DNA of 64,000 nucleotides from NCBI RefSeq assembly GCF_964194025.1, contig NC_134478.1, positions 34,038,001 to 34,102,000 on the forward strand, in the 5' to 3' direction. Positions within the stretch are counted from its first letter, which is position 1. The number at the start of each line of letters is the position of its first letter. Source of the DNA: Convolutriloba macropyga (Eukaryota). The position numbers and the translations under genes were made by a program. Below are positions 14,959 to 64,000 of this stretch, one piece after another. The notes below the pieces were generated by a model. That model was not told the origin of the DNA, searched no databases, and saw only the letters and a list, made by a program, of their open reading frames with translations.

Positions 14959-14959
<1 letters not shown>

Positions 14960-14962
<3 letters not shown>

Positions 14963-15172
14963 GCACACATAAGGAACTGGTAAGGAAGGATTAAAATAAA
15001 AATAGGACATCAAGGAAGGAGCAAAGAAACAAAGTTAAGCAGCTCTATACTCAGTGCAGCCTTCCCTCCTCCACAACGGAGCTAACTGAAGTCTCACTGA
15101 GAACAGGAGGCTTGAGGGCGCGACATCCCTTCAATCAGAGAGAACAGCTCCTCAGAACTGCGAAGCTGATTT
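14960..15172 (-). mobile_element. Duplicated 3' end of CRE-like element
   Basis: Near-identical to ~21750-21962. Confidence 0.8.
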
Positions 15173-21100: not shown

Positions 21101-21306
21101 CACGGACGCAAACATCAAAACCGTCATTTATTTTGTGCTATGAAATGCTGGTTTAGTCGCAGCTTTTGTTACATTTCCAAGGGACTGGGCGTAGTTTTTT
21201 AGTTCACTGAGGTCAAATTTTACGGTCTCTATCATGTGGTTTGATTTTTCGAGTTTTGTGCAAACATTTTCGATTGTTCCTTGATTTCAATGAGCTTCAT
21301 GCTCTA

Positions 21307-21709
21307 GATTCGAACAACAAACATAAATCCAGATCAACAGAAACGCGGCAAAACGAAAACTTCGAGGTTCCTTTTAACAGGATGAAGAAGACCGATACAT
21401 ATTTTTCGACACGGACTGCGCGACTTATGAACATCTTAAACCAGCAACCAGCACATACCTGAGAATGAGTTACCAAAATCACGACTGATAAAGGTGTATC
21501 ACGAATTCATCGATAGGAGCTACAATTGACACCACGAGAATTATAATATAAAAAGGACCGTGTACACCATCCGGCAACGACGGATGTAGGTCGGAACAAA
21601 AGGGATGATGAGTAGCACTTAGACGGATGCTGCACTCCAAGCTGTTCCCCTCCAGACAGTGTAAAGACGGCCCAGTCACAAAAATATATAACAAGTGGAG
21701 AGGAAAGCA

Positions 21710-42404: not shown

Positions 42405-44704
42405 TTAAAGAATACTTTCATCTCGGGGTTGAGCTTGATGGTCCAGATCATCGTCTGTGTTGAACCGGTCCATGGTGTTGAGTGACATGGTAGAAGTTGC
42501 AGGCATGGAATTTCGCCGTTGTCGCTTGAGGGTTCCAAGTTCTTCTGGGGAAATGACTGTTGGTGGTTGCTTGAGTTGTTTGGCTAGAGTTGTGACTACA
42601 TATGCTTTCAGATGTTTGGGTACGGAAACTACTGGGTTTAGCGGTACATTGGTTCCGTTAAGCTTCATGAAATTTGGTACCATTCGTCGTACAAAAGCTA
42701 CTTTATGGTATAAGAACATGAAGAGAATATGTAGGGCTAGATTTCCGATAAAGACAATGATTGTTAACGAGAGAGAAAGTTTGATCGGAACGTAAGATTC
42801 AAGTTTGTCAATTAGTGCCGGTTTAAATGACTTCATTTCGGTGGTAATTGGCTTTGCTATAGCATCTAGTGACTCTGTTGATAACTTTCTATTCGAGTAA
42901 ATAAATTCGGTTTTAACTTTCTTCAATAAATCGAGGTTTGCTTCAGTACAGGAATCATATTTCGGAAGGTCGTTTATGTTAGGTACTGAGTCAATTAAGT
43001 GCGCAAGTGGATCTGGTAATTTTACATTAATTCTCGTTGCTGGAAGGTACTGACAACTTTGTAAATCAGCTCGAATTTTAATGTGGTCACTGAACATTGT
43101 ATGTCCACATTTTAATGTGATTAAACAGATGTTACAACCTTTATGAGGAACATTGATGTGTCGGCCATTTTCATCCGTACCAATCTCCCTAAGGGTATAA
43201 TCACTTGAAGCTGATGTTAGAAGCCAAATTCCGTATCCAAGGTTCTGTGCTCGTTCTGGGTTGGGTAACACAACCTTCTCTGTATCACATACTTTCAATG
43301 CTGAGATTGTGTGGTGAAACTTGAGGGTTGCTAGACACGAGGAGAATCCAAGGTGAGTTTCCATTGTCTCATGACAGATTCGGTATCGTGGCGATCCAAG
43401 ACAGTTGTCATACTGAGCTTTCGTCAGTACTGTAGTTTCCATCTGTCCTTCTGAGATTGCTAAGTATTCTCCCTCTATTACATATCTTAAGGCGTCTATG
43501 GAGTCCTTCTGAGGCATAGGGATTACTATTGCACGATAAACTTCAAACACTGTCTGGCTAGAGGCTAGGGGAATGGCTAGTGTCAGTAAAAGTCCATCTT
43601 CAACTGTCGAAATCTCTTGTACTAATTTCGCATCGTAGTACGAAAGTATATCAGTCATGGGTATTGCCAAAGTTAGACGATCTGGGGCGTTCTTTTGGCT
43701 ATCATGGACTGCATCAAGGATCTTTATCAAAGATTTACGAGGTACTAAAGAGATTGGAAGACGTTTGTCAAGTAATGTAGGAATGGCATTTAGAACATTA
43801 ATTCGAAAGGAATATAAGGCTGCTCTATAACTTTTGATATCTGCATGATTGATTTAGTAAGAATTAATGATGCTGCTGTGTCAAAGTTAAAGTTCAATTG
43901 TTGTTGTGATAATTGTATTTCCATACAGGAGGCTAGTGCATTCAGATTATGATCTATAATTGCAAACTGTTCCTCTACTAGTTTCCAGTTTCTGTTCTGG
44001 TTTTCTTGCATTTCGTTTTGAACTTTGTAAACTTTTGCAAGTTCGTCAGCAACTAGGAAAAATTTCTCGTCGGTTTGTGCTCCGATTTCCATGACATAGT
44101 CGTTGAGGCTATTGAAACTGTTAGCTAAGCGATCGATATTTTCAGCGTTTTGAGACGTTCTCTGACAAGATCCGAAAATTCCTGTGATTCCACCGCATCC
44201 TCCGCTGCTCATTGCTATTCCTGGACCGAAAAGTCCAATTCCAGCGACTGCGGCTGCGATTGCAAGCGGGGCGGCTCGTTTTTGTCGATTGTGAGGGTCT
44301 TCTTCGACTCTGGTAAGGAGTTTTTCAGTGTCGTTGCGTAATTTAAGGACTTCAATTTCGGCTTCTATTGTTTCATTGAGTATCTTTGTGTAAAGCCAAT
44401 CAACATTGAAGGCGTCTGTTCGATTCCGATATGTAGTGCTGTATGTCAGGTCGCAAAACTCTGATTGCGTGATCCACTTTTTGGAGAGTTCATTAAGTAG
44501 AGTCTCTACTTGTTGTCTGATCGTGAAATTATAACGAGGAAACGGTACTAAAAAGTCCACGTTAATGAACTTTTCGGTAATTAGGATCTTTCCGTCCTTA
44601 TGGAAGATGATTCCTTTATCCAGAGCTGCTTCTGTGTTAATCGGATTCTCAAAAGTGGGGCCGAAAAGTACGAGATTCAATAGAAATGTAAGTAATATTT
44701 TCGT
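42405..44704 (-). pseudogene. env: F-type (class I fusion) envelope glycoprotein, one frameshift near 43850
   Basis: Signal peptide (ACG)KILLTFLLNLVLFG; furin site RQKR followed by fusion peptide AAPLAIAAAVAGIGLFG; heptad region; Cys-rich ectodomain; C-terminal TM LSLSLTIIVFIGNLALHILFMFLY and cytoplasmic tail. Confidence 0.85.
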
Positions 44705-44957
44705 GTTTCAATAATACCAACTATGTTTCAGGACAATCTTCTACTGATGTTGCTCTTCTAAGTGTTTCAACTGGTTCTATTTGGTCTTCCGGTGTTTATT
44801 TGTTCATTTATGTACGTTACTCGGGCTTTTAGTTCTAACTTTCTCAATATGGCACTTGTTTATGTGATGTTTATTCATTTCAGGTGTACTCTACTTTTGG
44901 GTCATGTGTGTTGATGTGTGTATTTATTGATATTACTACTAAATATGGTGTTTAAAC

Positions 44958-45398
44958 ATGTTGAAGTGTGGTTATCTGGTTGAATGGTGGGTGTGTGATA
45001 ATGGGGATAGTGGTTGGGGGGGGGGGTCGAATTATGCAGTCTTTACATGTTTTTTCGAGTTTTTCAGATTATTTTGCCCACAATATTGCACCATGTGCTT
45101 TAATATCACTGTTTCTTCGCTAATTATTGGATGTTGCACAAATGGGACCAGGTTTGTCGGAAGGAACGATGTTCACTGGTCGAGACTGATCCATCCGAAA
45201 TGCAATATGACAGCGGTAGATAATGTAGTTATTGACAGTGGGAGTGGTGGTGGGACTGAGTGGTGGATTATTATTATATTAGTGTTCTTTTTATTATTAT
45301 CATTAGTATCTGGATTGTTGGGAGTGTGGGCAAATCGAAGGAGGAGGAGGAGTGAAGTGGGAAGATCAGAGGAGGCTGTCGAAGAAGATTCAGTGTGA
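44958..45398 (+). CDS. Small putative membrane protein, antisense to the Gypsy genes
   Basis: Hydrophobic stretch WWIIIILVFFLLLSLVSGLLGVW followed by RRRRR stop-transfer; start uncertain. Confidence 0.45.
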   Translation: MLKCGYLVEWWVCDNGDSGWGGGSNYAVFTCFFEFFRLFCPQYCTMCFNITVSSLIIGCCTNGTRFVGRNDVHWSRLIHPKCNMTAVDNVVIDSGSGGGTEWWIIIILVFFLLLSLVSGLLGVWANRRRRRSEVGRSEEAVEEDSV

Positions 45399-45537
45399 CT
45401 TATTATTTATTTTTATTTTATTTAACTATATTAATAGTTGTAATATTATGTAATATTAATATTAATATAACTGTGTTGCCCAGTATGAGAATTTTCTGAC
45501 TTTCTTGCGAAGCAAGTCGTTGTCTCAGTCTGAATGG

Positions 45538-46287
45538 ATGTATCCATCATTTGTTCGAACATCTGAGGAGCGACGAGCTTATCGAGACAAAGCGGAGCAT
45601 ATGGTACTGGGAACAAAGAATGTGGGGACTTCAGAGTTGGCTGTAAATCGGGAGGTGTTGATGTATAATGTGGAAGTGAAGGTGGGCAGCGAGATACAAG
45701 TTCAGGAGAAGGAAATTCCAACTCAGCAGATGGTGTCTCAGGAGTTGGCTTCGCTTCATGTCGGGTTCAGTGCCTCTGCAAAGCACATAACTCGTGTGAG
45801 GTCACAAGTCGATCGCCTGAAAGCTGCTGGGTTCTTCTTTCCACGTTCAATGGGGGGATTGCAAGCCGCTGTTGAAAGGTAATTGCATATGTTTATAATA
45901 TTTATTTATATTTTTATTTGGTTTTCTTTAGTTTGTTACATGTATTAGTAGTTGTGAAGTGGTGTATGCTTATTGTTTAGAGCTAGTCGTGAATGTGTGC
46001 CATGTTTCGTGAAGAAGATGCACGGCAAAGAGGTGCAGTGCACTTTTTTCCGTGCAAATCTTCGTGCAAACTTGTGTGCAGAATTGGGGTACGAGTTTTA
46101 CAATGACTTTTATGCTGAGTATGTGGACATAGTGTCATTTAAAACTCCAAAGTTGCTTGGTGCGGCTGGTGTGAGGGCCGAAGTTGGTGGTCTGTGTGCT
46201 CTCAGTGCTCTGTACTACACTTTAACTGGTCGGAAGTCAGGAATTTGTTGTGTTTTGTTGCAATTTTCAGTAAGTTTATTACTGTAA
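45538..46287 (+). CDS. Spliced antisense ORF (exons 45538-45878 and 45981-46287), unknown function
   Basis: GTAATT...TTTAG intron 45879-45980 joins two track ORFs in frame; CVPC-x5-H-x5-C motif; further GTAAGT..TTACAG candidate intron at 46270-46311. Confidence 0.5.
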
Positions 46288-46563
46288 TTCACATTTGTTC
46301 GGTGTGTTACAGACAAGAAGGTTTCCAAGCATAATGTTCGCGCTCTACGCTTGGCTATTGTGGCCAGGATGCGTTCGCCTGGGTTCTCTGAACTTGTAAA
46401 GGACCAGTTAGGGTACTTTGTGTCGGAGTATGAGATTGCTGAGAGTGAAGATAATGGGTCGTTGGCCGAGTTCTGGGTAAAGTTTCCTGTTTATACTTGG
46501 TAATCCTGGTACGTGCATTTGTAGGTAGATATTATCTGAGGTTTTGCTATTTAGTTTGTCGGT

Positions 46564-46953
46564 ATGGCTTATTTCCTCGGATGCAACGTCAACATCTATT
46601 GGCAGTATACTGAGGAAATGGGGGGCGGCTGGGTGTGTTACAGGCATTCGATCAATGCTAAAGCCACCGCTCCTGCTGTACTGATCCAGTGCATCGGGAA
46701 ATTCATCGACAATGAGTATCGATACCATTGTGAGCCAATCGTAGACTTTCCAAAGTGAGTATTTAACTGTTTTTGTAAAGATCTATCGTGTTTTTCATAT
46801 AATTTTGAGGCTTTTTGTTCATTATAATGACATTTAAACAGGTTGGACGATGCTGAGCGGTACTTGACTCGTTCTACTAGGACAAGGGGTCAGTCCGGTC
46901 AGTGTACTAGTGGTGGTGGTACCGTAGCTGAGGATAGCGCCGATGAGAATTGA
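46564..46953 (+). CDS. Spliced antisense ORF (exons 46564-46754 and 46842-46953), unknown function
   Basis: GTGAGT...AAACAG intron 46755-46841 removes the stop and extends the frame (..DFPK-LDDAERYL..DEN*). Confidence 0.5.
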
Positions 46954-47683
46954 CTAGTGTCGGTGCAATTATATTCATCATGTAGTTTAATTTCATCTAT
47001 AGGTGAGTTTTTACTTTTTATTTGTCAATTGTAGCTTTGACAATTGGTTTTGACTGTTGGTACGAGCAGCTGTGAAGTGTGTGAGCATGTGGTAATATTT
47101 TAATTACAGTGTGTGACTTTATAATGACATATTTATGAAAGTGAAATTCTGGTGACATAACGAATTTTTTTTGATTTTCTGCTGTACTGATCCAGTGCAT
47201 CGGGAAATTCATCGACAATGAGTATCGATACCATTGTGAGCCAATCGTAGACTTTCCAAAGTGAGTATTTAACTGTTTTTGTAAAGATCTATCGTGTTTT
47301 TCATATAATTTTGAGGCTTTTTGTTCATTATAATGACATTTAAACAGGTTGGACGATGCTGAGCGGTACGTGACTCGTTCTACTAGGACAAGGGGTCAGT
47401 CCGGTCAGTGTACTAGTGGTGGTGGTACCGTAGCTGAGGATAGCGCCGATGAGAATTGACTAGTGTCGGTGCAATTATATTCATCATATAGTTTAATTTC
47501 ATCTATAGGTGAGTTTTTACTTATTATTTGTCAATTGTAGCTTTGATAATTGGTTTTGACTGTTGGTACGAGCAGCTGTGAAGTGTGTGAGCATGTGGTA
47601 ATATTTTAATTACAGTGTGTGACTTTATAATGACATATTTATGAAAGTGAAATTCTGGTGACATAACGAATTTTTTTGATTTT
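46673..47683. repeat. ~507-bp tandem duplication
   Basis: CTGCTGTACTGATCCAG... at 46673 recurs at ~47179. Confidence 0.88.
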
Positions 47684-50594
47684 TGAGCATTAACTTTAAT
47701 TTACTTGTAAATTATTGATCATGGACTGGTTCTAATGGTTCTAGATGCTTATTCTGGTTGTTAGCAGCACTTGTGTGTAATTGGAACTGGTTTAGAAGAG
47801 TATTTGGTACTAATTTTCACATGTAATTTTTTCGTAATTTTGGCCATTTTTCCGCATCAGGGCTGGTGTTGCATATATGTGAATTTTTCAATTTTTATTA
47901 AATTTTGTGCAAATTTTTTTGCTTAGCCCACTCAGTAGACATTGGTGGGGAATAACTATGCTATAAATTCAGGTTTTTCGGCACTTTTTGGTTAACTTTT
48001 TCACTAATGTATGAAAAACCGAAAAATGCGAAAAATTGAGGGCTCCAGTGTCACTCAATTTTTAAATTGCTCCAATTGGGCTCAAAATTGGTAGGTCGCT
48101 TCAGGGGCTCAAAAAACGCTGCAGCGCAAAAATTTGGCGCAATTTGAGCATTTTTCGCAAAGATATGATTGTTTTCGTGATCTGAACCTGGCTATTTTTG
48201 AATCATGAATTTTCGGTCTGAATAAGTCGTCACTGCTCATACATTATCGGTATTGAATGGTTAAAATGGTACTGTCTGTGCTTGGTACTAATGTATATTA
48301 TAGTGAATTATAGGGTTTGAAGCTATTTATTGGGTCAGAACATTGATTTTTGCGTCCAAAATGCTAATTTTCAGGCATGATTTTTCCACTAATTGAGCTT
48401 CGTCGAGACATGTGTCAGTCTGGTGTTTCTCTAGTGGCCTAAGTCAGGTGCTAACTGTTAGTACCGATATCTGTGGCTATCAGGGGTAGCTTTTTGGTAG
48501 GTTTGAAGTTGAATAATATGTGTTTTGTGCCGGTTTTTCTGTGAAATTTACTAGATTTTTACTTGTGAAGCATCATGTTTTGTGCATAAGTTGACATAGA
48601 TTGGAGATAATTGATTTTTGACAGTAATTGTGAGTCATACTAGTGAGTACTATGTTGGTAGCAACTATTGGTGCAGTTTGGTGCATGATTTGACTTTTTT
48701 ATGTGGAGTTTTTCACTTTAGAATTTTGGGCTAAATTTGATCAGATATGTGCAATTTTCGATTTTTTCACTTTTTTCAACTTTTATGATTTTCTATGAGA
48801 TTGTATGGGTTTATTGGGCTTTGACAACTACTAGGGAGACTGAATATTGGATATGGGCTCATAATTCGGCTATTTGATACTATTTTTCTGGTATAAATCT
48901 GGCTCTAGTTTGGCAAATTTGAGAAGAGTTTGGTAGGCTTCAGTTTTTTTCTATTATATCAACATTTTACTTAACAATTTTCAATATTTTTGATATGGGC
49001 GTGTAGAGCTTGAGCATGCGGATGTTTTAAGCTAATATCGGATTTTCGATCAATATTTCGGATTTTATGAACATGTTCGTAAATTTTCAAAAAGTCTCCA
49101 AAATTGAGGGGCCCAGCGTCACTCAATTTTTAAAATGCTTCGATTGAGCTGAAAATTGGTGAATCGCTTTATCGGCTCAAAAAACCCTGCAGCGCAAAAA
49201 TTTGGGCAGTTTCAACTATTTTTTCACGAGTTATAACGTTTTTGCTGCAGTGAACCTGGGTTTTTTGAAAAGGCTCAGATAGGGGATAGGTTATTGGCTA
49301 TGAGGCTATGAAAAACTCGTTCAGAATGATTGATATTGCTATGGTTGGACTGCTCATGAGTAGGGCTAACTGAATTCACAATAAAATTGGGCATATTCAG
49401 GTATTAAGATGCATTTTGGATCACTTTTTCTGGTAATTTCACTTAAATTTTTGTGATTTTCATTATTTTGGAAGTGTTTTCTCAGCTTGTATTGGCACTA
49501 GGGGGCTGGGAGTGCATATTCTGAGAGCTATAGATGTGGGCGTGCTGATGGTATGGTTAATTGCTGTCAGAAGTGAATAATGTTGACTCTAGCTGGAAAT
49601 AACTGAATTTTACCTGACAAAATTGTGGCGATTTCAGAGCTTATTTGGTTTTAAGTCTTCATGGTTGATACTGGAATGAACTGGGACTGGTTTTTATGGT
49701 ACTGCGAGGCTAGTGGGGGGTTGCAATAGGGTTGTAGGGGGTATAGGTGGCTTCAATCGGGTCATGTGGGAAATAAAATGACAAAATTTTTGAAGCGGAG
49801 GATTGAAGCAGAAGCGCGATTTTCGTTTTTTCATTTTTCAACATATACTTAGAAATATTGGGTTTTAACGGTTGTTTGAGGTTGTACCATGTGGGTGGCA
49901 GCTGGGAGTAGCTGCTGGAGGCATTTGGGTCAGTTGGGGGTATAATTTACACTACATTTTAATCAATTTTAGCACACTTTGATAGGGTTCGGTATTTTTG
50001 TCATAACTCAACTTTTATTGATTTTTGACGGGATTTTTGGGTACTGAGATGTCAAGCGCGAGCAGTAGGGTGATCTAGGGCTATAAAATGGGTCAATTGG
50101 AGGTTTTTTGTGGGAGTTATCATTGAATTCGAGCGGATTCGAAAAGTGTCAAAAATTGAGGGCTCCAGCGTCACTCAATTTTTAAAGTTCTCCAAATCCC
50201 TTCAAAATTTGCACGTCGGTTCCTCGGCTTGAAAAATGCTGCAGCGCAAAAGTTTGGGGTGATCGGGGCATTTTTCACAATTTTATGACTATTTTTCTGA
50301 AGTGAACCTAGGATTTTCGGAAGGGTCAATTTTAGGCTAATTTTTTGGTACTTAGAATGGGTCGAATGGGTCAATAATAGCTGGAATCGCTTCTACTGGA
50401 TAAGGGCTTTTCAGAACAATAGGTTACTCCAGGTTCAGACAAGTAGTTCTGGAGATATAACAAAATAACTAGGATTTGAGGTCAAAATTTTTCGAATTTT
50501 TTCGATTTTTGGACTTTAGGGTTAAGTTGCTCAGGCTTGTTGGGCTTTTGGGGCAAATGAAGGGTGCTGCTAGACTGTACTGGGTCTGTACATG

Positions 50595-52858
50595 CTAATG
50601 GATATAGATGGTTATGGGTAGAGGGTCGAAGACTTGACATATAAGCTCAAAAATGATGTTAAAATCCAATTTATCATAGCCACTGGCGAGTTTTGGAAGA
50701 CTTAAGTGTGAAATTCCTGCATCTATTACTATTTCTCTCAGTTCATAGAGACTTGCTAATACGGATTCGTATGTGGGTTTGTGGTAGTATCTAAACTTGG
50801 TAACTAAACTGAAGATATAACGTTCAGAAATGGGGTCGAAGTAAATTAAAACTGAGCCAATATCAGGTGGATATCTAAGTCTAATTGCACTTGGGGCTGC
50901 TGGGTACCAGCTTTTGACTTGTCGGGCTAATCCCTTTGCCATTGCAAGGTCTGCTGATACACAGTGTGCAAAAGAGTATGGTGAATATAAGATATCTGTT
51001 GGAGAACTTAGATATGTTGCATTTATTTCTTGACTAAAATGGTTTAAAGTTTGATTAGATGAGCCTGGTGAAGATTTTTTCGATTGAGATCTAGTTACTG
51101 GTTTGTTTGCTGAACTGATTGGCTTTTTCCCTGAATATTTTGCTATACTTGCTCTAACTTGATCTAGTTTTGTCTCTCTACTTGGTGTATTTGACTGTTG
51201 TGCTGCTTGTGCTGATGCTTTTATTGCTTCACGTTTTTCTTCTTGTTCCAGTCTGGCACGTGCGTTTTTTGGTCTAGGACTGCCTGATCTTCTAACTTGG
51301 TTGGTTAGGTAAGGGTTTGTTCTATCTTCATCGTGTAACCATATTTGTCTAGTTATTTTAAATCCTTGGACATTTTTCTTCTGTTGGTATTTTGGTGATT
51401 TGAAAGCACTTTTTTCTGGTTGTCGTTTAGGGTGATAAGGTCGGGCTCTTAATTTTCTATCAGTTAACGCAAATTGTTCTTCATGTGTTTCTGGAGGCGA
51501 GTCACTATCGAATGGTTCTATTGACGGGCGAGGCTGTTGAGCTGGTAGGAACATTTCATCATCTGATGAAGATGATACAAGAGGAACACGAACTTCTGGT
51601 TCTTGATGTCTAATTTCGTCAGCAATTAACGGATTAACTGGTATTCGGGCAATTTGTTCTGCATCCAGATTTAGGTCAGCTAAATTTTTGTCTGAACTAC
51701 TATTTTTGTCAAAAAGATTTGGAATTGCTTCATCTGAACTTGAGGAGTCAAATACTGGAAGATGAACTGGGGCAGTTCGCGGTCTAACTGCTGGTGCTAC
51801 TACCCTCGGTGGGGCTGCTGGAGGTGCTGCTACTGCTGGTCCTGCTAATGGTCCACATAGGGGAACATTTATGGTCACTCTGACTGGATCTTGTTTCTCT
51901 TTTGTAGCTTGTTTTATTTCCTTTTCTTGTTCATTTATCAGATCTGGAATGTGTTTATCAAAAAGCTCTGGCTCCATGTGTTGTCTTCTAGATGGATCAG
52001 GTTGAAAGTTTGCCGGGTTGATAACTTCGAGATCTTCAGGAGTTTCACTTGGATTAATTGGCTTCAATCTGATGCGATGAACACATTGGGTGTAGTTCGT
52101 ATTTACTTTTCGAATGATGTAATTAGAATCAGTAAGGACTTTTTCCACTTTATATAGCGGTAGCCATTTCTGAACTTGGGAAGCTATTACTGTTGATTGT
52201 TCTAATAGCTTAGGGTTTAAAAGTAAACAGAATGATTTTTCTGGAATTGGTTTTGCTGATGCTTTTTGATCATAATACTTCTTGTACTTCAAGTATGCGG
52301 TCGTCAGTTTTTCTTTGTTTTCTCCAAACTTTTGCATCATGGCGTCTTGCAGTTCATTTACAAAGTCAGAGTTTACTGCTACTGCATCCATTACTTTTCT
52401 GGAGAACCTAATGTCGAGGGGTTTTATGGGTTCTCTGCCATGGAATAAAGTTGAAGGACAACAATTTGTCGCTGAATGGTATGACGTATTATGAATAAAA
52501 GTTGTAAAGAGGAACATATTTGTGCCAGTCTTTCCATTGTTCCTCAGTATTGAGTTTTAAAATTCGTTTCAGTGGTCCGTGAGATCGTTCTACTGCTCCA
52601 ATAGTTTGAGGGTGCTTTAGTGAGGCATGTTTTAACTTTACTTCTAATAAACTTGCTAATTCTGACATTAATTCAGAAGTAAAATTGGTTCCTAAGTCAC
52701 TAAGTATTGTTTGAGGAATGTAGCTATGTTGGAAGAACACCTTTACTAATTCTCTAGCTACTGTATCAGCATATCCATTTGTTAATGGAACTGCGAATAG
52801 GTACTTTGTGAAAACATCTATTCCACTCAGAACATACTTATATTGTGATGACTTTAGG
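50595..52858 (-). pseudogene. Duplicated integrase C-terminal half, linker and TARG1-like macrodomain
   Basis: Copy of 55972-58234. Confidence 0.88.
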
Positions 52859-55800
52859 TAGTTTAATTATATAGTTTAATTTCATCTATAGGTGAGTTTT
52901 TACTTATTATTTGTCAATTGTAGCTTTGATAATTGGTTTTGACTGTTGGTACGAGCAGCTGTGAAGTGTGTGAGCATGTGGTAATATTTTAATTACAGTG
53001 TGTGACTTTATAATGACATATTTATGAAAGTGAAATTCTGGTGACATAACGAATTTTTTTGATTTTTGAGCATTAACTTTAATTTACTTGTAAGTTATTG
53101 ATCATGGACTGGTTCTAATGGTTCTAGATGCTTATTCTGGTTGTTAGCAGCACTTGTGTGTAATTTGAACTGGTTTAGAAGAGTATTTGGTACTAATTTT
53201 CACATGTAATTTTTTCGTAATTTTGGCCATTTTTCCGCATCAGGGCTGGTGTTGCATATGTGAATTTTTCAATTTTTATTAAATTTTGTGCAAATTTTTT
53301 TTGCTTAGCCCACTCAGTAGACATTGGTGGGGAATAACTATGCTATAAATTCAGGTTTTTCGGCACTTTTTGGTCAACTTTTTCACTAATGTATGAAAAA
53401 CCGAAAAATGCGAAAAATTGAGGGCTCCAGTTTCACTCAATTTTTAAATTGCTCCAATTGGGCTCAAAATTGGTAGGTCGCTTCAGGGGCTCAAAAAACG
53501 CTGCAGCGCAAAAATTTGGCGCAATTTGAGCATTTTTCGCAAAGATATGATTGTTTTCGTGATCTGAACCTGGCTATTTTTGAATCATGAAATTTCGGTC
53601 TGAATAAGTTGTCACTGCTCATACATTATCGGTATTGAATGGTTAAAATGGTACTGTCTGTGCTTGGTACTAATGTATATTAGTGAATTATAGGGTTTGA
53701 AGCTATTTATCGGGTCAGAACATTGATTTTTGCGTCCAAAATGCTAATTTTCAGGCATGATTTTTCCACTAATTGAGCTTCGTCGAGACATGTGTCAGTC
53801 TGGTGTTTCTCTAGTGGCCTAAGTCAGGTGCTAACTGTTAGTACCGATATCTGTGGCTATCAGGGGTAGCTTTTTGGTAGGTTTGAAGTTGAATAATATG
53901 TGTTTTGTGCCGGTTTTTCTGTGAAATTTACTAGATTTTTACTTGTGAAGCATCATGTTTTGTGCATAAGTTGACATAGATTGGAGATAATTGATTTTTG
54001 ACAGTAATTGTGAGTCATACTAGTGAGTACTATGTTGGTAGCAACTATTGGTGCAGTTTGGTGCATGATTTGACTTTTTTATGTGGAGTTTTTCACTTTA
54101 GAATTTTGGGCTAAATTTGATCAGATATGTGCAATTTTCGATTTTTTCACTTTTTTCAACTTTTATGATTTTCTATGAGATTGTATGGGTTTATTGGGCT
54201 TTGACAACTACTAGGGAGACTGAATATTGGATATGGGCTCATAATTCGGCTATTTGATACTATTTTTCTGGTATAAATCTGGCTCTATTTTGGCAAATTT
54301 GAGAAGAGTTTGGTAGGCTTCAGTTTTTTTCTATTATATCAACATTTTACTTAACAATTTTCAATATTTTTGATATGGGCGTGTAGAGCTTGAGCATGCG
54401 GATGTTTTAAGCTAATAATATCGGATTTTCGACCAATATTTCGGATTTTATGAACATGTTCGTAAATTTTCAAAAAGTCTCCAAAATTGAGGGGCCCAGC
54501 GTCACTCAATTTTTAAAATGCTTCGATTGAGCTGAAAATTGGTGAATCGCTTTATCGGCTCAAAAAACCCTGCAGCGCAAAAATTTGGGCAGTTTCAACT
54601 ATTTTTTCACGAGTTATAACGTTTTTGCTGCAGTGAACCTGGGTTTTTTGAAAAGGCTCAGATAGGGGATAGGTTATTGGCTATGAGGCTATGAAAAACT
54701 TGTTCAGAATGATTGATATTGCTATGGTTGGACTGCTCATGAGTAGGGCTAACTGAATTCACAATAAAATTGGGCATATTCAGGTATTAAGATGCATTTT
54801 TGATCACTTTTTCTGGTAATTTCACTTAAATTTTTGTGATTTTCATTATTTTGGAAGTGTTTTCTCAGCTTGTATTGGCACTAGGGGGCTGGGAGTGCAT
54901 ATTCTGAGAGCTATAGATGTGGGCGTGCTGATGGTATGGTTAATTGCTGTCAGAAGTGAATAATGTTGACTCTAGCTGGAAATAACTGAATTTTACCTGA
55001 CAAAATTGTGTCGATTTCAGAGCTTATTTGGTTTTAAGTCTTCATGGTTGATACTGGAATGAACTGGGACTGGTTTTTATGGTACTGCGAGGCTAGTGGT
55101 GGGTTGCAATAGGGTTGTAGGGGGTATAGGTGGCTTCAATCGGGTCATGTGGGAAATAAAATGACAAAATTTTTGAAGCGGAGGATTGAAGCAGAAGCGC
55201 GATTTTCGTTTTTTCATCATTTTTCAACATATACTTAGAAATATTGGGTTTTAACGATTGTTTGAGGTTGTACCATGTGGGTGGCAGCTGGGAGTAGCTG
55301 CTGGAGGCGTTTGGGTCAGTTGGAGGTATAATTTACACTACATTTTAATCAATTTTAGCACACTTTGATAGGGTTCGGTATTTTTGTCATAACTCAACTT
55401 TTATTGATTTTTGACGGGATTTTTGGGTACTGAGATGTCAAGCGTGAGCAGTAGGTTGATCTAGGGCTATAAAATGGGTCAATTGGAGGTTTTTTGTGGG
55501 AGTTATCATTGAATTCGAGCGGATTCGAAAAGTGTCAAAAATTGAGGGCTCCAGCGTCACTCAATTTTTAAGGTTCTCCAAATCCCTTCAAAATTTGCAC
55601 GTCGGTTCCTCGGCTTGAAAAATGCTGCAGCGCAAAAGTTTGGGGTGATCGGGGCATTTTTCACAATTTTATGACTATTTTTCTGAAGTGAACCTAGGAT
55701 TTTCGGAAGGGTCAATTTTAGGCTAATTTTTTGGTACTTAGAATGGGTCAATAATAGCTGGAATCGCTTCTACTGGATAAGGGCTTTTCAGAAGAATAGG

Positions 55801-55971
55801 TTAATCCAGGTTCAGACAAGTAGTTCTGGAGATATAACAAAATAACTAGGATTTGAGGTCAAAATTTTTCGAATTTTTTCGATTTTTGGACTTTAGGGTT
55901 AAGTTGCTCAGGCTTGTTGGGCTGTTGGGGCAAATGAAGGGTGCTGCTAGACTGGACTGGGTCTGTACATG

Positions 55972-57894
55972 CTAATGGATATAGATGTTTATGGGTAGAG
56001 GGTCGAAGACTTGACATATAAGCTCAAAAATGATGTTAAAATCCAATTTATCATAGCCACTGGCGAGTTTTGGAAGACTTAAGTGTGAAATTCCTGCATC
56101 TATTACTATTTCTCTCAGTTCATAGAGACTTGCTAATACGGATTCGTATGTGGGTTTGTGGTAGTATCTAAACTTGGTAACTAAACTGAAGATATAACGT
56201 TCAGAAATGGGGTCGAAGTAAATTAAAACTGAGCCAATATCAGGTGGATATCTAAGTCTAATTGCACTTGGGGCTGCTGGGTACCAGCTTTTGACTTGTC
56301 GGGCTAATCCCTTTGCCATTGCAAGGTCTGCTGATATACAGTGTACAAAAGAGTATGGTGAATATAAGATTTCTGTTGGAGAACTTAGATATGTTGCATT
56401 TGTTTCTTGACTAAAATGGTTTAAAGTTTGATTAGATGAGCCTGGTGAAGATTTTTTCGATTGAGATCTAGTTACTGGTTTGTTTGCTGAACTGATTGGC
56501 TTTTTCCCTGAATATTTTGCTATACTTGCTCTAACTTGATCTAGTTTTGTCTCTCTACTTGGTGTATTTGACTGTTGTGCTGCTTGTGCTGATGCTTTTA
56601 TTGCTTCACGTTTTTCTTCATGTTCCAGTCTGGCACTTGCGTTTTTTGGTCTAGGACTGCCTGATCTTCTAACTTGGTTGGTTAGGTAAGGGTTTGTTCT
56701 ATCTTCATCGTGTAACCATATTTGTCTAGTTATTTTAAATCCTTGGACATTTTTCTTCTGTTGGTATTTTGGTGATTTGAAAGCACTTTTTTCTGGTTGT
56801 CGTTTAGGGTGATAAGGTCGGGCTCTTAATTTTCTATCAGTTAACGCAAATTGTTCTTCATGTGTTTCTGGAGGCGAGTCACTATCGAATGGTTCTATTG
56901 ACGGGCGAGGCTGTTGAGCTGGTAGGAACATTTCATCATCTGATGAAGATGATACAAGAGGAACACGAACTTCTGGTTCTTGATGTCTAATTTCGTCAGC
57001 AATTAACGGATTAACTGGTATTCGGGCAATTTGTTCTGCATACAGATTTAGGTCAGCTAAATTTTTGTCTGAACTACTATTTTTGTCAAAAAGATTTGGA
57101 ATTGCTTCATCTGAACTTGAGGAGTCAAATACTGGAAGATGAACTGGGGCAGTTCGCGGTCTAACTGCTGGTGCTACTACCCTTGGTGGGGCCGGTGGGG
57201 CTGCTGGAGGTGCTGGTCCTGCTAATGGTCCACATAGGGGAACATTTATGGTCACTCTGACTGGATCTTGTTTCTCTTTTGTAGCTTGTTTTATTTCCTT
57301 TTCTTGTTCATTTATCAGATCTGGAATGTGTTTATCAAAAAGCTCTGGCTCCATGTGTTGTCTTCTAGATGGATCAGGTTGAAAGTTTGCCGGGTTGATA
57401 ACTTCGAGATCTTCAGGAGTTTCACTTGGATTAATTGGCTTCAATCTGATGCGATGAACACATTGGGTGTAGTTCGTATTTACTTTTCGAATGATGTAAT
57501 TAGAATCAGTAAGGACTTTTTCCACTTTATATAGCGGTAGCCATTTCTGAACTTGGGAAGCTATTACTGTTGATTCTTCTAATAGCTTAGGGTTTAAAAG
57601 TAAACAGAATGATTTTTCTGGAATTGGTTTTGCTGATGCTTTTTGATCATAATACTTCTTGTACTTCAAGTATGCGGTCGTCAGTTTTTCTTTGTTTTCT
57701 CCAAACTTTTGCATCATGGCGTCTTGCAGTTCATTTACAAAGTCAGAGTTTACTGCTACTGCATCCATTACTTTTCTGGAGAACCTAATGTCGAGGGGTT
57801 TTATGGGTTCTCTGCCATGGAATAAAGTTGAAGGACAACAATTTGTCGCTGAATGGTATGACGTATTATGAATAAAAGTTGTAAAGAGGAACAT
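55972..57894 (-). CDS. Integrase C-terminus, Pro/Ser-rich linker and TARG1/OARD1 (Poa1p-like) macrodomain; frameshifted continuation of pol
   Basis: HNTSYHS..PSTLFHGR and YKVEK..NY..VHRIRLKP are Gypsy integrase C-terminal motifs. HCISADLAMAKGLA, RYIFSLVTK, KPTYE and LSLPKLASGYDKL match the TARG1 macrodomain signature. Confidence 0.88.
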   Translation of the reverse strand: MFLFTTFIHNTSYHSATNCCPSTLFHGREPIKPLDIRFSRKVMDAVAVNSDFVNELQDAMMQKFGENKEKLTTAYLKYKKYYDQKASAKPIPEKSFCLLLNPKLLEESTVIASQVQKWLPLYKVEKVLTDSNYIIRKVNTNYTQCVHRIRLKPINPSETPEDLEVINPANFQPDPSRRQHMEPELFDKHIPDLINEQEKEIKQATKEKQDPVRVTINVPLCGPLAGPAPPAAPPAPPRVVAPAVRPRTAPVHLPVFDSSSSDEAIPNLFDKNSSSDKNLADLNLYAEQIARIPVNPLIADEIRHQEPEVRVPLVSSSSDDEMFLPAQQPRPSIEPFDSDSPPETHEEQFALTDRKLRARPYHPKRQPEKSAFKSPKYQQKKNVQGFKITRQIWLHDEDRTNPYLTNQVRRSGSPRPKNASARLEHEEKREAIKASAQAAQQSNTPSRETKLDQVRASIAKYSGKKPISSANKPVTRSQSKKSSPGSSNQTLNHFSQETNATYLSSPTEILYSPYSFVHCISADLAMAKGLARQVKSWYPAAPSAIRLRYPPDIGSVLIYFDPISERYIFSLVTKFRYYHKPTYESVLASLYELREIVIDAGISHLSLPKLASGYDKLDFNIIFELICQVFDPLPINIYIH

Positions 57895-60800
57895 TTTTGT
57901 GCCAGTCTTTCCATTGTTCCTCAGTATTGAGTTTTAATATTCGTTTCAGTGGTCCGTGAGATCGTTCTACTGCTCCAATAGTTTGAGGGTGCTTTAGTGA
58001 GGCATGTTTTAACTTTACTTCTAATAAACTTGCTAATTCTGACATTAATTCAGAAGTAAAATTGGTTCCTAAGTCACTAAGTATTGTTTGAGGAATGTAG
58101 CTATGTTGGAAGAACACCTTTACTAATTCTTTAGCTACTGTATCAGCATATCCATTTGTTAATGGAACTGCGAATAGGTACTTTGTGAAAACATCTATTC
58201 CACTCAGAACATACTTATATTGTGATGACTTTAGGGGGCCTACTAAATCGATTTGTAGCATATCTCCTGGATATGATTGTAGAGAACTAACTGGTTGTAA
58301 CTTTGCTGTAATATGGCTTTTTGGTACTCTGTTCAATTGGAGACAAGTAAGGCAGTTTTTGATGAAGCTAATGAAATGTTCGGTGAAGCCTGGATAATAA
58401 AATCGCTTTCTAAATTCCTGAATTGTTGCTTTGATACCTAAGTGACCTGCTGTTTGTGAATTATGGAGCCTATATATAGTCTCTTTCCACAAATGTTTAG
58501 GTACACAGAATTGTTTATGAAGTACATTTCCAGTATCATCATAAAAATTCCGGTATAAGACATTCCCTTCAAGAATTAATCTATTTAAATGTTTTTGATA
58601 CTTTTTTAAGTTGGTTGTAGCATACTTTAAGTCTGGTTGTTGATTGTTTTGTTGAATCCAGCTTATTACTATTCTAATATCTGCATCTTTTTGCTGCTCA
58701 TCTGCTAAGTTAAGGCTAATTAAGTTGTCTGTAAGGTCTGGGAACTCATCTAATGGATTTGGGTACTCAATTGAATTTATTTCGTGTTTTCGTTTAAGTT
58801 TTAATAGCCCTTGAATTTCTGTAATTGGAACATTATTTTGTCGTTTTTTGTAATCCTCATAAACTCCTAGTTTTTTAAGAAAGTTAACTTCGTCTTCGTT
58901 TATTTCGTCACCGAGGCCTTCAGTATCAAATAACACATTTAGTTCTACATCAGGGTTTTGTGCTTCTGTGTCAATTTCTATTTCTTTAACTGGAATTCTG
59001 TCTGTTAACTTTAAAGACATTGTTGCTGTTTTGTCATTCTCCATTCGGGAGAGAAAATCCGCTGCGTAATTAGCGCGTCCAGGAATGTGAGCAATTACTA
59101 TGTTAAATGCGAGTATTCTGTCTAAACAATTCCAGAGTGATGGTGGTATTACTTTTGACTGAAAGAATTGTGTGAGGCTTTTGTTGTCAGTGAGTATAAT
59201 TACTTGTTTACTTGATCCCCAAATGTAGTGTGAAAAGTAGTCCAGCGCGTAGTACAAAGCTAGGAACTCTTTGTAGTATATTGAGAACTTAAATTGTGTG
59301 GCATTAAACAAATGCGATCCAAACGAAACGGGAGCGTATGTTTTCTTTTCTTTCTTTCCTGTTTCATTTACGTAGTCTTCCACCATTAGTACAAAACCTG
59401 CACCGTGGTAACTAGCGTCACAAAGAATTACATACTGTAGCCCTGGTTTTGGCAATCGCAAAGTTACATTCGTTGCTTCCATTAGATCCTTTTTTATTAC
59501 TTCTAATGCTTTTACATGTTCTTCTGTGGTTTCTATTACTGCATCCTTCTTCAGGAGCTTGTAAGAGGACATTAGTTTCTCACCTAGATTAGGTATGTAA
59601 TTACGGAAGAATTGCGTGAAGCCAATTAGTCGTTTTACTTGCTTTGTTGTTTTCGGCATTTTAAATTTATCAAGAAATTTCGTTATTTTTGATTTTTCTG
59701 GTGATATTCCTTCTGCACTGATGTTATTTCCAAGGAATTTTATTGTATCGGTTGCTATTTCACAATTTTCGGGCGACAGTTTCAGTCCCGATTGACGTAT
59801 ACATGTAAAGATTTCTCGTAAAGAAGGTACCAATTGTTCAAAATTTGTTACTGCATTTCCGATATCATCCATAAACTGGGTACAATTTCCTGATGCTAAG
59901 CATGGGTCCAAGTAATGTCTAATAGAGGAACTAACTCCTGTTACTGACTTATTCAATCCTTGTGCAAGACATTTATATGCATAAGTTCTCGAAGCAAAGT
60001 TAAATGCTGGCAGTTGCACTGATACATCGTCTGCCATTTGCACGCAATGATATGCTTGAGAACAGTCAAGTTTTGTGAACAATTTTTTTCCAGCAAAGTA
60101 ATTTATTGCGTCGCTCATGTTTGAAATCGGGAAATTCGTATTTACGTAGTCATTTTTCAGCAAGTGGTTTACTTTTCTCAAGTCAATTAATAGTCTAAGT
60201 CTTCCTGAATTCTTTCGTTGTGCGAAAAGTGGACTACTATATCTTGATTGAGACAAAGTTGTTATCAGTCCGTAATAATGCATTAGTGCGAGCTCTATTT
60301 GTAACTCATTTCTTAAATGGAAGGGCGTTGGAGGGCCTTGTTCGTAAGTTGGTATGCTTCTTTCTGGAGTTAACTTTATTTTTAAATATGTATTATATCC
60401 AACGTCAAATCTGTGTTTCGCAAAGATATCACTGAATTCAACTAGTAGTTCACCTACTACTGCTTTTTGCTCATCATTGAGGGCTGATTTTTCCCACGGA
60501 AACTTGCTCAAAAAGGTTATTTTATCCTGATTATTACCCTTTGGATCTAATTTCTCCATTTCTTGCAGTTTTAGCAGTTGCTCATAGACATCTCTCTGCA
60601 AGGGCGACAAATTTGTCGGATCTGGGCACGTTTCAGGCGTTGGGAACCATAGTTTTTCATATTCTGGCGCTGGTTTCGCTGGTTGAGATTTTCTTTTCGG
60701 GGTGTCTGTAACTTGAATTAATTGATTTATTTCTGTTAAGTAATTTTCGCTCATTTTTGCAACATTTATTAATTGAGGATCTACTTCTAACAACTTTTCT

Positions 60801-61773
60801 GCTTGGTCTGATGTTAAGAATGAGAATTTGGCTATTTCTTCGTCTTTATTTATGGTAATTGGGTGGTCAGTAATGTTCAGGACATAGATGTAGAGAATGT
60901 TATTTTCAGCAACTTTACTTAGAGATGATGTTAATATTACTTCACTATCTTTTTCAAAGATTTCGTTTGGAATTATTACTCCACAAAGGTCAGTGAATGA
61001 TTCTAGTTTATCATAGAGCTTACATTCTAATACTGCTTGTTGACTCGGCTGTAACACTTGCTTTTTCTGTGTATAAACTCCAAATTTTTTGCATTTTACC
61101 ACTCTTCTAGGTTGCTTTTCTGGCTTTATTTCATTTATTTGTAATGTTTGATCAGGGAATTTAATGTAACTTTGTCCTGGGCAGATGCTAACTTTGTGTT
61201 TAACGAAGAATGGGTTGCCTAATATTACAGGAGTTGTGACAATTAAAACAAGGAAATCTTCTGTAAATGTTTGTGTGCCCAATTTAAATGTAATTTTAAT
61301 TGCTTTATCAATTTTAACTATATTGCCGTTTGCCATTTTAACTTTATCTAGATCTGACTTGTCTATTTCTGTTATTGAATTGATATTTGTGTTAATTAGT
61401 TCCTTGTAAAACTCACGACTTATCACATTTGCAAATGCTCCTGTATCAACTAGTGCGCGTCTGTCTAATTCTCCATTAAATTCAACTTAACATAGGACAA
61501 TGTTCTGCCTAAAAGTGGGACAATGCTAAATAATTGCTGAACATGTGGTGTTGGCTTTGGTGTGGATTTAGGTACTTGTGTTGGGAGTTGCACAGATTTA
61601 TTCACTTTACATTTATTATTATTACTTTTGCGTTTTCTACGCTTTTTGTTACTTTTATTTTAAACTGGCTCTATTACTTTATCTAAACTAGGACTAGACG
61701 TGCTTTCGTTATAATGGTTAACTGAGTTTTTATAATTTTTATTTTGTTTTTTAAAGTTGGGTGGCTTTATTAG
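57866..61773 (-). CDS. pol: Ty3/Gypsy pol (PR-RT-RNase H-IN), N-terminal part with one stop and one frameshift
   Basis: Protease ALVDTGA near 61440; RT LIDLRKVN, KLDCSQAYH, FMDD; RNase H CDAS, KEFLAL, TDNKSL; integrase H-H-C-C and D,D,E (IDLVG, SDLG, VER). Confidence 0.93.
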
Positions 61774-63021
61774 TTTTTTTGTTGATTAAATGGGAAATTC
61801 ATACCTCTCATATTTCTACTTTGGAGTGCACCAGCACGACTAAATTCTTTTGCTTTTTGCATACCATATCGGTCTTGTGCTGGACTATCGTAAACTATAC
61901 CCTGTCTAAGAAGGTTTTGAGGGGTATTTTTTGTTGGGAACCGATAAACTGGTCTATTAACATAAGCTGGATGAACAAATGGGGGACTGTCTGAAGGTTC
62001 GGTCCAATAATTACGAGTTTGTGGCTGTTCGTTATAATGAAACGGTCTAGGGGCATTAAATTGTGGTCTAAACTCTCGGTAATTATTAGCACGAGGGGCA
62101 TACTGTTGCTGGGGCCGATAGTTATGCTGAACTGGACGATAATTAGGCTGATATTGAGGGTAATTTGGTCGATAATTTTGATATTGGGGGCGGAAATTTT
62201 GTCTAGAACTTTGTTTGTAGACTTGTTGTGGGTAATGTGGTGTGAAAATGTTTACTGGGCCTTGTTCTGATGGCTCATTTTTAGGTGCTGTTCTCTGTTC
62301 AAGTTTCTGCTCAAGTTCTTTTTGATTATTTGAAATAGTAGTTATTGCTTTTAACATTTTATCAGTATTTGTTTCCGTTATTTCATTAAACCCGTCGTCG
62401 AAGTACTCTTCTCTGTTGCACATCTCCCTAATTGCAATTTGTTGGCTAGCTAAGGTGCATAACTGATCTATTGTATCTGTTTCTGGCCTTTCTAAGAGCT
62501 TAGGCTTAAGCCAGTTTGGCATAGACTTAATAAAGAAGCGCTTTATTTGCTCATTTTTTCGATTTTCTGACATCTGAAGGGCAGAATCTCTTGCTGCTGT
62601 CTCTTTCGAATCTACGAGCTTCTGGGTCACCTGCTCCTGCTGGCGCTACTACTGTTTCAGGTGGTGGATATGCTTTATTGGCTTCAGTTCTTAACTTTAC
62701 TAAGATATTTTTAACAGTGTCTGTTTTTGGATTAAACTTTTGATTCTCTAACTTTATAAATCTGATCTCTCTCAAGTCATCCTGTGTGAATCTGTGTCTT
62801 AGAGCTGTTATACTGTCTTCAAAAACTAGTCTGGTAGCCTCTGGTAGGGTTAAGAAGTATCGTAAAGCGTCTCCTTTTAAATGTAATTGCAGAAAGTTCG
62901 CTTGTTGCGCGTTTGCGATTGGTGCAACTCCGATTGCACCTGTTATTAGTTGTTCAAACTCGTTAAAATTGTCCGTTTCTGATCCGGAAAAAGGCGTGAT
63001 GTTGATCTTCGCGTGTGCCAT
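61770..63021 (-). pseudogene. gag: Gypsy gag, frameshift near 62610
   Basis: ITPFSG..FLQLHLKGDALRYF retrotransposon-gag pattern, Q/R/P/Y-rich C-terminus, position upstream of pol. Confidence 0.82.
61773..61779 (-). promoter_or_regulatory. -1 ribosomal frameshift slippery heptamer A AAA AAC at gag end
   Basis: CAA AAA AAC TAA; the -1 frame runs ~95 codons toward the protease with a single stop. Confidence 0.6.
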
Positions 63022-63528
63022 TTTGCTTTTTACCCGATTAGATTATATACTTTTCGTTCAATCAGTCTTACTTTCGTTCTAAAGTATTAAATAGCACACT
63101 TAACTTAACTTAATGGAGAGATTAAGGGTTTTTAAGAGATGAAAACAGTTAAGTGAGTAGCACAAGAATATCAGAAAGGAAAACTTCTGAAACCATTCGT
63201 TCAGAAAATAATAAAGATGGGCTACTTATAAACCTATTCCTAAAGCTCCGGTCGAATCGTTAGACTTATATCGTTGAAGCCGTATGGGCCGCCGAAGTCT
63301 CACCTCTAAAGAGTGCCCCTTAGTCTAGGAAAATTCGTGGGGACCACGACCGCACAGGCCTTGTGGAAGCTGCACTCAGATAGGCAACAGCATAATTGAC
63401 CGAAGTCACTGTTTGATTCATTAACCTCCGGAGCTGGGCGGGGAAATAGAATATAATTGTTTTATTTTGTTTAATTTTGTTTTGCCCTCTTTTAGTTAAT
63501 ATTTAAGTGATGGTTTCAGTAATTTAGC

Positions 63529-63861
63529 TTATTCTGATGTTATCTGATAATCAGTAATGATGTTGTCAAGGTTATTATCTCTGTCAGATTGAAGTTTGTT
63601 ACGAATAAGGCCAAATTTGCGAGCTTTTTGATTTAGACTTTTTGCGGTCCAATAAATTGCAACACGTTTATCATCTTTATCTAGCACATAAATAACGATG
63701 GATTTATAAGCTGAAGAGGAAAAAGCGCTTACTATCTGAGGTTGTGTTTTATTGCTGTTATGGGTGTAGTTGATGTTATTGCCTTCGATATGTTCAACAA
63801 AATTGGGGGAAGCGCGACAATTATTAATAGCGGGGAGAATTTGTTCTTTATAAATTGACAT
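63529..63861 (-). CDS. Unknown 110-aa ORF upstream of gag, same strand
   Basis: ATG-initiated ORF in AT-rich leader; no recognisable motif. Confidence 0.3.
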   Translation of the reverse strand: MSIYKEQILPAINNCRASPNFVEHIEGNNINYTHNSNKTQPQIVSAFSSSAYKSIVIYVLDKDDKRVAIYWTAKSLNQKARKFGLIRNKLQSDRDNNLDNIITDYQITSE

Positions 63862-64000
63862 AAATAAAGCACCAAAATTAATTTTACAAATTCATTTACT
63901 CACAATATCCTCGTTTGCAAATACCCTGTGTTGTTTTTGTCCGTTGTGGTGGCTGTGGTTGAGTTTGTTCCAGTTATTGTTCACTCAAACACTTTTGGAT

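Follow-up and report, generated by a model that had tools for sequence, protein, structure and literature searches.

The 64,000-nucleotide stretch of the Convolutriloba macropyga genome analysed here (contig NC_134478.1, positions 34,038,001–34,102,000; hereafter the window, G000:C11:34038001-34102000) holds most of a large Ty3/Gypsy element flanked by long terminal repeats (LTRs). As the initial annotation had stated, gag, a slippery site, pol with a macrodomain, and env all lie on one strand, the minus strand, and env follows about 6 kb further on (5.9 kb after the duplicated copy of the macrodomain, which ends at 50595). Between pol and env, on the opposite strand, are two genes of spliced form, which we call gene A and gene B (Table 1). 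Genome searches covered 1.18 Gb in 4,694 contigs.

Table 1. Features of the element and of its derivatives, in window positions unless a contig or locus is named.
Feature	Position	Strand	Details
3′ LTR	40974–41838	−	865 bp, TG..CA; pairwise match to the 5′ LTR
env (putative)	42405–44700	−	F-like class I fusion protein, assigned from motifs and weak Baculo_F similarity
Gene A	44849–45398	+	exons 44849–44883 and 45068–45398, with an intron between
Gene B	45476–46953	+	exons 45476–45878, 45981–46240, 46313–46476, 46555–46754, 46842–46953
506-bp tandem duplication	46673–47683		46673–47178 = 47179–47683, 99.0%; only in the window copy
5.4-kb tandem duplicate	47480–52858		= 52863–58235, 98.8%; spacer, macrodomain, 3′ half of integrase; only in the window copy
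Non-coding spacer	52863–55971		three degenerate ~1.06-kb units; cores 53402–53584, 54483–54652, 55526–55695
pol	55972–61770	−	protease, reverse transcriptase, RNase H, integrase (H2C2, rve, p58_C-like), long linker, macrodomain
TARG1/OARD1-like macrodomain	55975–56418	−	C terminus of pol, last ~150 residues; duplicate at 50598–51041
gag	61770–63021	−	start 63021, ~420 residues in the family; two frames near 62550–62645 in the window copy
A-AAA-AAC −1 frameshift heptamer	61773–61779	−	at the gag stop
5′ leader	63022–64000	−	reaches the primer site and 5′ LTR ~250 bp past the window end
5′ LTR	G000:C11:34102254-34103118		beyond the window, starting 254 bp past its end; partner of 40974–41838
150-bp replacement	L012:2555-2704		equivalents in L015, L019, L021, L027, L127

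The initial annotation saw no LTR pair, placed the start at 42405 and left it unproven that the parts belong together. A pair does exist: the 3′ LTR lies inside the window and sets the start of the element at 40974, and extension past the window recovered both the 5′ LTR, which matches sequence below 42400, and a primer-binding site. The two repeats are identical at 860 of 865 positions, their aligned ends read TGT and ACA, and a 5-bp target-site duplication (ATAAC) stands on both sides of the window copy. The primer-binding site after the 5′ LTR is the complement of the 3′ end of tRNA-Leu, with one mismatch in the window copy; the primer-site pattern gave 183 matches and the reversed control none, and ARAGORN called tRNA-Leu at two loci carrying the pattern. 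The tRNA-Leu 3′ end also has matches in long tandem arrays at C1:80.69-80.73 Mb and C11:45.16-45.22 Mb, with ~615-bp and ~345-bp spacing. The TG..CA pair, the target-site duplication, the tRNA primer site and the series protease, reverse transcriptase (RT), RNase H and Gypsy-type integrase are those of Ty3/Gypsy (Metaviridae) elements. The earlier description as a complex-retrovirus-like Gypsy element therefore holds for its second half, whereas the retroviral likeness is one of analogy, the Pfam profile being Gypsy-like.

Thirteen other genomic copies, chosen by env, served for comparison. Pol occurs in the same order in all 13, and the 11 that have both LTRs inside the fetched DNA each carry a 5-bp duplication of their own sequence around LTR pairs of 98.6–99.9% identity. 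The family has been mobile recently. Copies span 13.2–20.9 kb, and the two without large rearrangement measure 18,750–18,751 bp; the initial estimate of more than 15 kb is borne out by this 18.75-kb unit, although its claim of a size far above typical Gypsy elements needs tempering, as Ogre (16–25 kb) and Burro (>30 kb), by the sizes given in PMC6431247, exceed the unit. The window copy spans 24.1 kb, having gained duplications of 5.4 kb and 0.5 kb and lost ~440 bp.

It is virtually certain that all these parts form one element. One LTR pair and its 5-bp target duplication enclose them here and in 11 of 11 copies, and no LTR boundary falls between macrodomain and env in the window copy. The two tandem duplications and several frame breaks in this copy, and the frequency of tandem duplications in the assembly, might suggest that nested elements came together by chance or that the assembly is at fault. 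Parts in this order, bounded by a single LTR pair and target duplications, nevertheless recur on different contigs, which refutes that reading for the unit and leaves it a negligible probability. Gag, pol, env and gene B are broken in the window copy, and gag, pol or env is interrupted in every family copy whose open reading frames (ORFs) were listed, a point against the reading favoured below; because the LTRs are so young, some of the breaks may be assembly errors.

Pol lies in the −1 frame relative to gag, and in several distant families gag likewise ends on the slippery heptamer; folding compared with shuffles found no hairpin downstream of it (z −0.51). In pol, Asp_protease_2, RVT_1, RT_RNaseH, Integrase_H2C2 and rve score above the Pfam cut-off and p58_C below it, and the frame of the window copy is interrupted upstream of the protease and near 57870–57930. 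The Pfam scan of pol did not detect the macrodomain, which matches human C6orf130/TARG1 at E 6.5e-15 and retains in the alignment a Lys and an Asp that we take to be the TARG1 catalytic pair. A similar tail is present in 9 of the 120 public pol relatives listed. In the RT tree, those macro-tailed relatives that are long enough fall with the window family in one 23-row branch (support 100/99), and a single additional row, judged macro-like by eye, is placed elsewhere in the tree. The domain is degenerate or absent in several families that carry gene B. Degenerate macrodomain tails were also noted in several public pol relatives (P0061, P0074, P0076 and P0077), and one relative (P0150) has a dUTPase domain.

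Env has a hydrophobic N terminus, an RQKR cleavage motif followed by a hydrophobic stretch resembling a fusion peptide, and a C-terminal transmembrane segment; in the window it is split into two frames near 43790–43850 and lacks its start codon. Its only family match is Baculo_F, given by 3 of 17 env pieces (E 0.006 for the window, 3.3e-6 for the best family member), and one whole env reached 18.4 bits, under the 24.1 cut-off. A comparison with PDB gave no significant match, and no env relatives were found in IMG/VR. Judged by its sequence, env is probably F-type. The element had been proposed to represent an enveloped virus-like lineage with accessory genes: the envelope half of that proposal comes down to the motifs and the weak Baculo_F similarity, whereas ‘accessory genes’ is apt because purifying selection has kept the antisense genes in distant families, as set out below.

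Gene A sits between env and gene B, its start head to head with that of env and ~150 bp away. Its predicted product is a small Cys-rich type I membrane protein with a signal peptide, an ectodomain bearing N-glycosylation sequons and the motif C-x-CC-x-NG(S/T)..W..C, a transmembrane segment and a basic tail; the signal peptide and Cys ectodomain presumably set it apart from FAST proteins. Gene A-like ORFs, often intronless, were found in 13 of 18 pol–env intervals examined. Two strongly divergent alleles exist in the family, with a ratio of non-synonymous to synonymous divergence (dN/dS) of 0.22 on 80 codons at near-saturated dS. Pfam returned no family for gene A, and an atlas comparison gave leads only, all scoring ≤0.85. 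At one locus with gene B (L031:4644-4946) neither gene A exon-2 allele matched, reflecting either a deletion or a third allele.

Gene B has exons of 47–54% GC and four introns of 72–102 bp and 23–35% GC. All four introns are bounded by GT–AG in the five other copies aligned, and mismatches among copies amount to 3.6% in exons versus 7.1% in introns; the window copy has lost its 5′ end (the ~440-bp deletion) and has a non-canonical intron-2 donor. Intron positions and phases agree, by eye, in three distant families, one donor and one acceptor being ambiguous, and there is no continuous open frame on the sense strand under the exons. That all four introns here are multiples of three was considered as a feature and dismissed as chance, as the same is not so in several other families. 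By these comparisons the opposite-strand ORFs, first reported as spliced, look like two spliced genes. Splicing and expression of both genes are predictions from genome comparison; contigs from four sequence runs cover introns and exons alike and show no clean GT–AG among 15 listed of 51 joints, which weighs neither way.

A genome search with gene B exon 2, scored for the best 150 of 212 candidates, returned matches from 100% down to 27% identity. From these we chose 20 loci with gene B at low or middling identity. Gene B runs opposite to gag, pol and env in all 20; pol and env are both present in 18, and of the other two loci one has just env and one just pol. Families that carry the cassette are only 22–38% identical in gene B. 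Among 40 copies picked by RT, at least 25 have a gene B match on the expected side, by eye. Against two sister families, dN/dS for gene B is 0.34 and 0.28, the values for the other parts being 0.27 for gag, 0.36 for env (248 codons), 0.31 for the macrodomain, 0.18 for RT and 0.12 for integrase. Across distant families, the antisense genes are under purifying selection. Over 12 families, identity in gene B is correlated with that in integrase (Mantel 0.64, p 0.001) and in env (0.55, p 0.004), which fits long co-inheritance. On the other side, the 13 gene-B rows fail to group as a single clade when placed with 48 public relatives of unseen neighbourhood. The 34 public representatives of gene B are fragments, each covering a single exon or reading through introns, in contigs from ENA or Logan (8 checked); several are only 35–39% identical to the window genome, a hint that they come from other hosts. 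A search for longer public homologues found none, and exon 4 had no relative in JGI metagenomes.

To what protein gene B corresponds is suggested mainly by structure prediction. We built a model from a 33-row alignment with introns read through, adding rows P0002 and P0005 and leaving out L004 (wrong frame) and P0022. Its predicted local distance difference test score (pLDDT) is 80–92 in the exon 3–4 core and 59 overall. In a structural search (VIA, 48,161 chains) the top 27 matches were all OTU proteases and the first unrelated row scored Z 4.6; the best were OTUD3 (Z 10.1, root-mean-square deviation 3.0 over 120 residues), OTUD1 (9.9) and nairovirus OTUs (8.2–9.5), and all 32 rows listed by Foldseek against PDB were OTU. 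In profile–profile comparison with host OTU domains, a Cys in exon 2 and a His in exon 4 fall on the catalytic columns. Of 12 families, 11 retain the Cys, all 12 the His and 10 a Glu two residues after the His. One distant relative scored 20.8 bits on a host OTU profile, versus 0.5 for the best of 30 shuffles.

Several results pull the other way. No gene B piece matched the Pfam OTU family (PF02338), the pieces being single exons or intron read-through with scores lowered thereby; the profile–profile E values were only 0.06, 0.03 and 0.003, with probability below 10%; on the OTU profile the window row does not stand out from its shuffles, 6 of 30 of which reach its score; the WGG motif of OTUs is altered; Foldseek E values were 0.04 or worse; and in the read-through model pLDDT around the Cys is mostly under 50–77, so that the active-site geometry is tentative. 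Searches of PDB by sequence or profile found nothing for gene B, and a single-sequence fold reached a pLDDT of only 40. On the predicted model, we regard an OTU fold for gene B as very probable and an active deubiquitinase, with distinctly less assurance, as the likelier state of the protein. A retained fold that is catalytically dead or acts on another substrate, serving as a ubiquitin-binding scaffold or adaptor, would accord with the altered WGG, the missing Pfam match, a Ser at the Cys position in one family copy and an acidic third residue missing in two. We hold it unlikely, since conservation of the Cys in 11 of 12 and the His in 12 of 12 families at 22–38% overall identity resembles an active site. 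Elsewhere in the genome, OTU domains occur in open frames of ~2,500 codons (L070-L075, on C2, C4, C10 and C807), several of them clustered at C10 43.2-43.6 Mb; their His-x-Glu-Pro motif resembles that of gene B.

An HHCC integrase-like domain may precede the OTU fold. Exon 1 contains an invariant Pro, His and His, a CxxC opens exon 2 and the OTU region follows directly, although the structural match is weak (Ty3 integrase residues 62–130, Z 4.2, rank 30). Ginger1 transposons join an integrase-type H2C2 finger and a C-terminal OTU in one intron-containing gene (Bao et al., PMC2836005, accessible text). Gene B resembles this layout in its predicted OTU and introns and, less surely, in a candidate H2C2-like finger (the weak Z 4.2 match), and differs in having no DDE core and in lying antisense inside an LTR element that carries it. 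Because the candidate finger, OTU and introns together amount to the Ginger1 layout minus DDE, Ginger1 is, by analogy, a plausible donor. Gene B could also be a passive relic of such a DNA transposon, hitch-hiking since one insertion; Ginger1 transposases carry YPYY, H2C2, DDE and OTU and have 1–4 introns (PMC2836005, accessible text), matching its HHCC, OTU and introns. Selection at dN/dS ~0.3 and introns that diverge twice as fast as exons contradict a relic, no integrase (DDE) core was found on the gene B strand within gene B at any of the 20 loci, and exon order is the same in all families; we consider it very improbable.

Copies without the cassette offer a further view. Gene B is whole in five of the 13 env-picked copies; five share a 150-bp replacement that removes gene A exon 2 and gene B, and three retain gene A with most of gene B gone. 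The replacement starts exactly at the gene A splice acceptor (window 45067), with a stop right after exon 1, and looks like a null allele. Among the 40 RT-picked copies, 15 had no listed gene B match: two were env-positive copies of the first set and 13 were newly fetched. Three of these 13 have a full env, two a partial env, six no env, and two no internal sequence in the 8 kb taken. The six without env nevertheless end in the same LTR, which speaks against env and cassette being fixed parts of the element. The initial annotation had named copies lacking env and the antisense block as evidence against its reading; such copies do exist in part, as deletion derivatives inside the same LTRs. Env-less and B-less derivatives have multiplied, and because copies without the cassette still spread, it is not needed in cis. 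One derivative that has multiplied within the LTRs of this family, on C13, C16, C7 and C6 (L120, L122, L123, L125, L130), carries the 150-bp replacement and has lost env along with gene A exon 2 and gene B.

The cassette might instead restrain the element itself, limiting copy number through an HHCC domain that poisons integrase multimers, a gene A product that blocks re-entry and antisense RNA that feeds silencing. The multiplication, with shared junctions, of copies lacking B or both A and B would suit this, as would an HHCC-like domain with no DDE core in gene B. Yet gene B stays with many distant families and tracks integrase divergence, at least 25 of 40 RT-picked copies still carry it, and a purely inhibitory cassette should vanish faster. 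We judge self-restraint improbable, somewhat more so than a catalytically dead OTU.

The spacer accounts for the three ~1.06-kb repeats reported earlier, which exist in degenerate form (59% identity over 1,550 nt, with ~170-bp cores 76–78% alike). Sister families also have the units (L060 with three cores, L064 with four), and none were found in nine distant loci tested. The units had no Rfam match, and their core gains nothing in folding over shuffled sequence (z 0.52); stops in all frames led us to reject a coding role. The spacer is ~80% identical to that of sister families, compared with 61–69% at their synonymous sites, and may be constrained, though AT-richness inflates identity. Both duplications of the initial annotation were recovered; alone, they could be artefacts. 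Head-to-tail duplications of 0.5–5 kb are frequent in the assembly (L004/L005, L012, L019, L064, L068, L115, L118) and reflect either a genome-wide process or an assembly trait. Elsewhere in the window, an AT-rich non-coding repeat at 37500–39300 adjoins the element and recurs next to the C1 copy as well as in L001, L002 and L006; a long interspersed nuclear element (LINE) fragment is repeated at a ~1.39-kb period over 12093–21307; and an open 1,181-residue LINE ORF at 5393–8938, which we take to be RTE-like, has C2H2-like zinc fingers inserted after the RT region.

Ty3/Gypsy elements with an F-type env are already known; we did not find the antisense cassette of OTU and membrane protein reported. 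To our knowledge, invertebrate errantiviruses have been described as gag–pol–env only. ‘Ancient errantiviruses’ of this kind are widespread (Chary and Hayashi, PMC13524379, accessible text, to which the following comparison is limited) and share with our element the gag–pol–env order, a probably F-like env, LTRs, a tRNA primer site, multiple copies and recent activity; here, by contrast, 2–6 kb with antisense genes of spliced form separate pol and env, and pol bears a macrodomain. The main text of that paper does not mention macro, antisense, accessory or OTU, and a term search of its supplements found neither OTU nor antisense. Its first filter allowed ≤1,000 nt between pol and env, with 3–5 kb extensions for some taxa, and because the gap was limited such elements could have been missed.

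Large size and extra genes also have precedents among Gypsy elements. Burro and Ogre, reportedly described by Arkhipova and Yushenova, are two of them. Both are large and have extra ORFs. Burro shows homology to env and contains domains related to ubiquitination and apoptosis; its extras are mostly in one polyprotein, and the accessible text mentions no OTU or antisense spliced gene for either (PMC6431247). The same source records OTU in Helitrons and precedents for extra ORFs between pol and env. Gene A recalls the sORF2/FAST-like small transmembrane proteins of MDG1-group elements (PMC11952523, accessible text) as a small single-pass accessory protein in an LTR element, but has a signal peptide and a Cys-rich, predicted glycosylated ectodomain, is antisense and coexists with env. 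Gene B has its predicted fold and its Cys and His positions in common with viral OTUs (nairovirus, Z 8.2–9.5; tymovirus protease, 5.6) and with human OTUD1/OTUD3 (9.9–10.1); identity is 10–21%, and gene B is a separate gene, predicted to be spliced and HHCC-bearing, rather than part of a polymerase. The macrodomain is closest in kind to TARG1/OARD1, and the macro ORFs of fish epsilon-like endogenous retroviruses (PMC4977317, accessible text, citing Basta 2009) provide precedent for macro domains in retroelements; here the domain is fused after integrase at the end of a Gypsy pol; the accessible text of the lokiretrovirus paper (PMC7947760) does not mention a macrodomain. A literature search joining OTU or macrodomain with LTR retrotransposons gave no relevant report; subscription papers, Repbase and bioRxiv supplements lay outside it, and a prior note may exist.

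On balance, we favour with fair confidence the reading of an env-carrying, errantivirus-like Ty3/Gypsy element with a conserved opposite-strand accessory cassette in which gene B is most likely a cysteine deubiquitinase. Genomic RNA from the 5′ LTR would yield Gag and, by −1 frameshifting, Gag–Pol. Because env and gene A start head to head ~150 bp apart, we propose an internal two-way promoter driving env one way and genes A and B the other, with gene B made by splicing to an acceptor in front of its start. Splicing of genomic RNA cannot act on antisense introns; the introns, being antisense to the copied RNA, would thus survive retrotransposition. Gene B would most likely act on proteins of the element or the host by taking off ubiquitin or a ubiquitin-like tag, and its HHCC domain may dock it on integrase or DNA; ADP-ribose would be removed by the TARG1-like domain, and the gene A product would be a cell-surface or particle protein. 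The cassette would work in trans, deubiquitinase and ADP-ribose eraser acting against host modification-based defence. A broader version is tentative, and we put it at somewhat below an even chance: that a whole invertebrate Ty3/Gypsy clade turned into a ‘complex’ enveloped retroelement independently of retroviruses, with cell-to-cell spread, a spliced antisense cassette under separate transcription encoding an active deubiquitinase and a surface glycoprotein, and a pol ADP-ribose eraser, the deubiquitinase having been captured with its introns from a Ginger1-type transposon.

Complex retroviruses and RNA viruses are the groups for which accessory genes of counter-defence are regarded as characteristic, and RNA viruses use an anti-ubiquitin and anti-ADP-ribose pair against innate immunity; the cassette suggests counter-defence genes of the kind better known from RNA viruses. 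The antisense orientation of the cassette shows how a retroelement can keep introns, and surveys with short pol–env gap limits may overlook elements of this class. Within one genome, natural variants that have or lack env, gene A and gene B form a built-in comparison, and the OTU gene and the macrodomain are now named as candidate enzymes for assay. If true, a conserved OTU gene that contains introns and is under selection, together with a macrodomain, would mean that defences based on ubiquitin and ADP-ribose confront an LTR element in its animal host.

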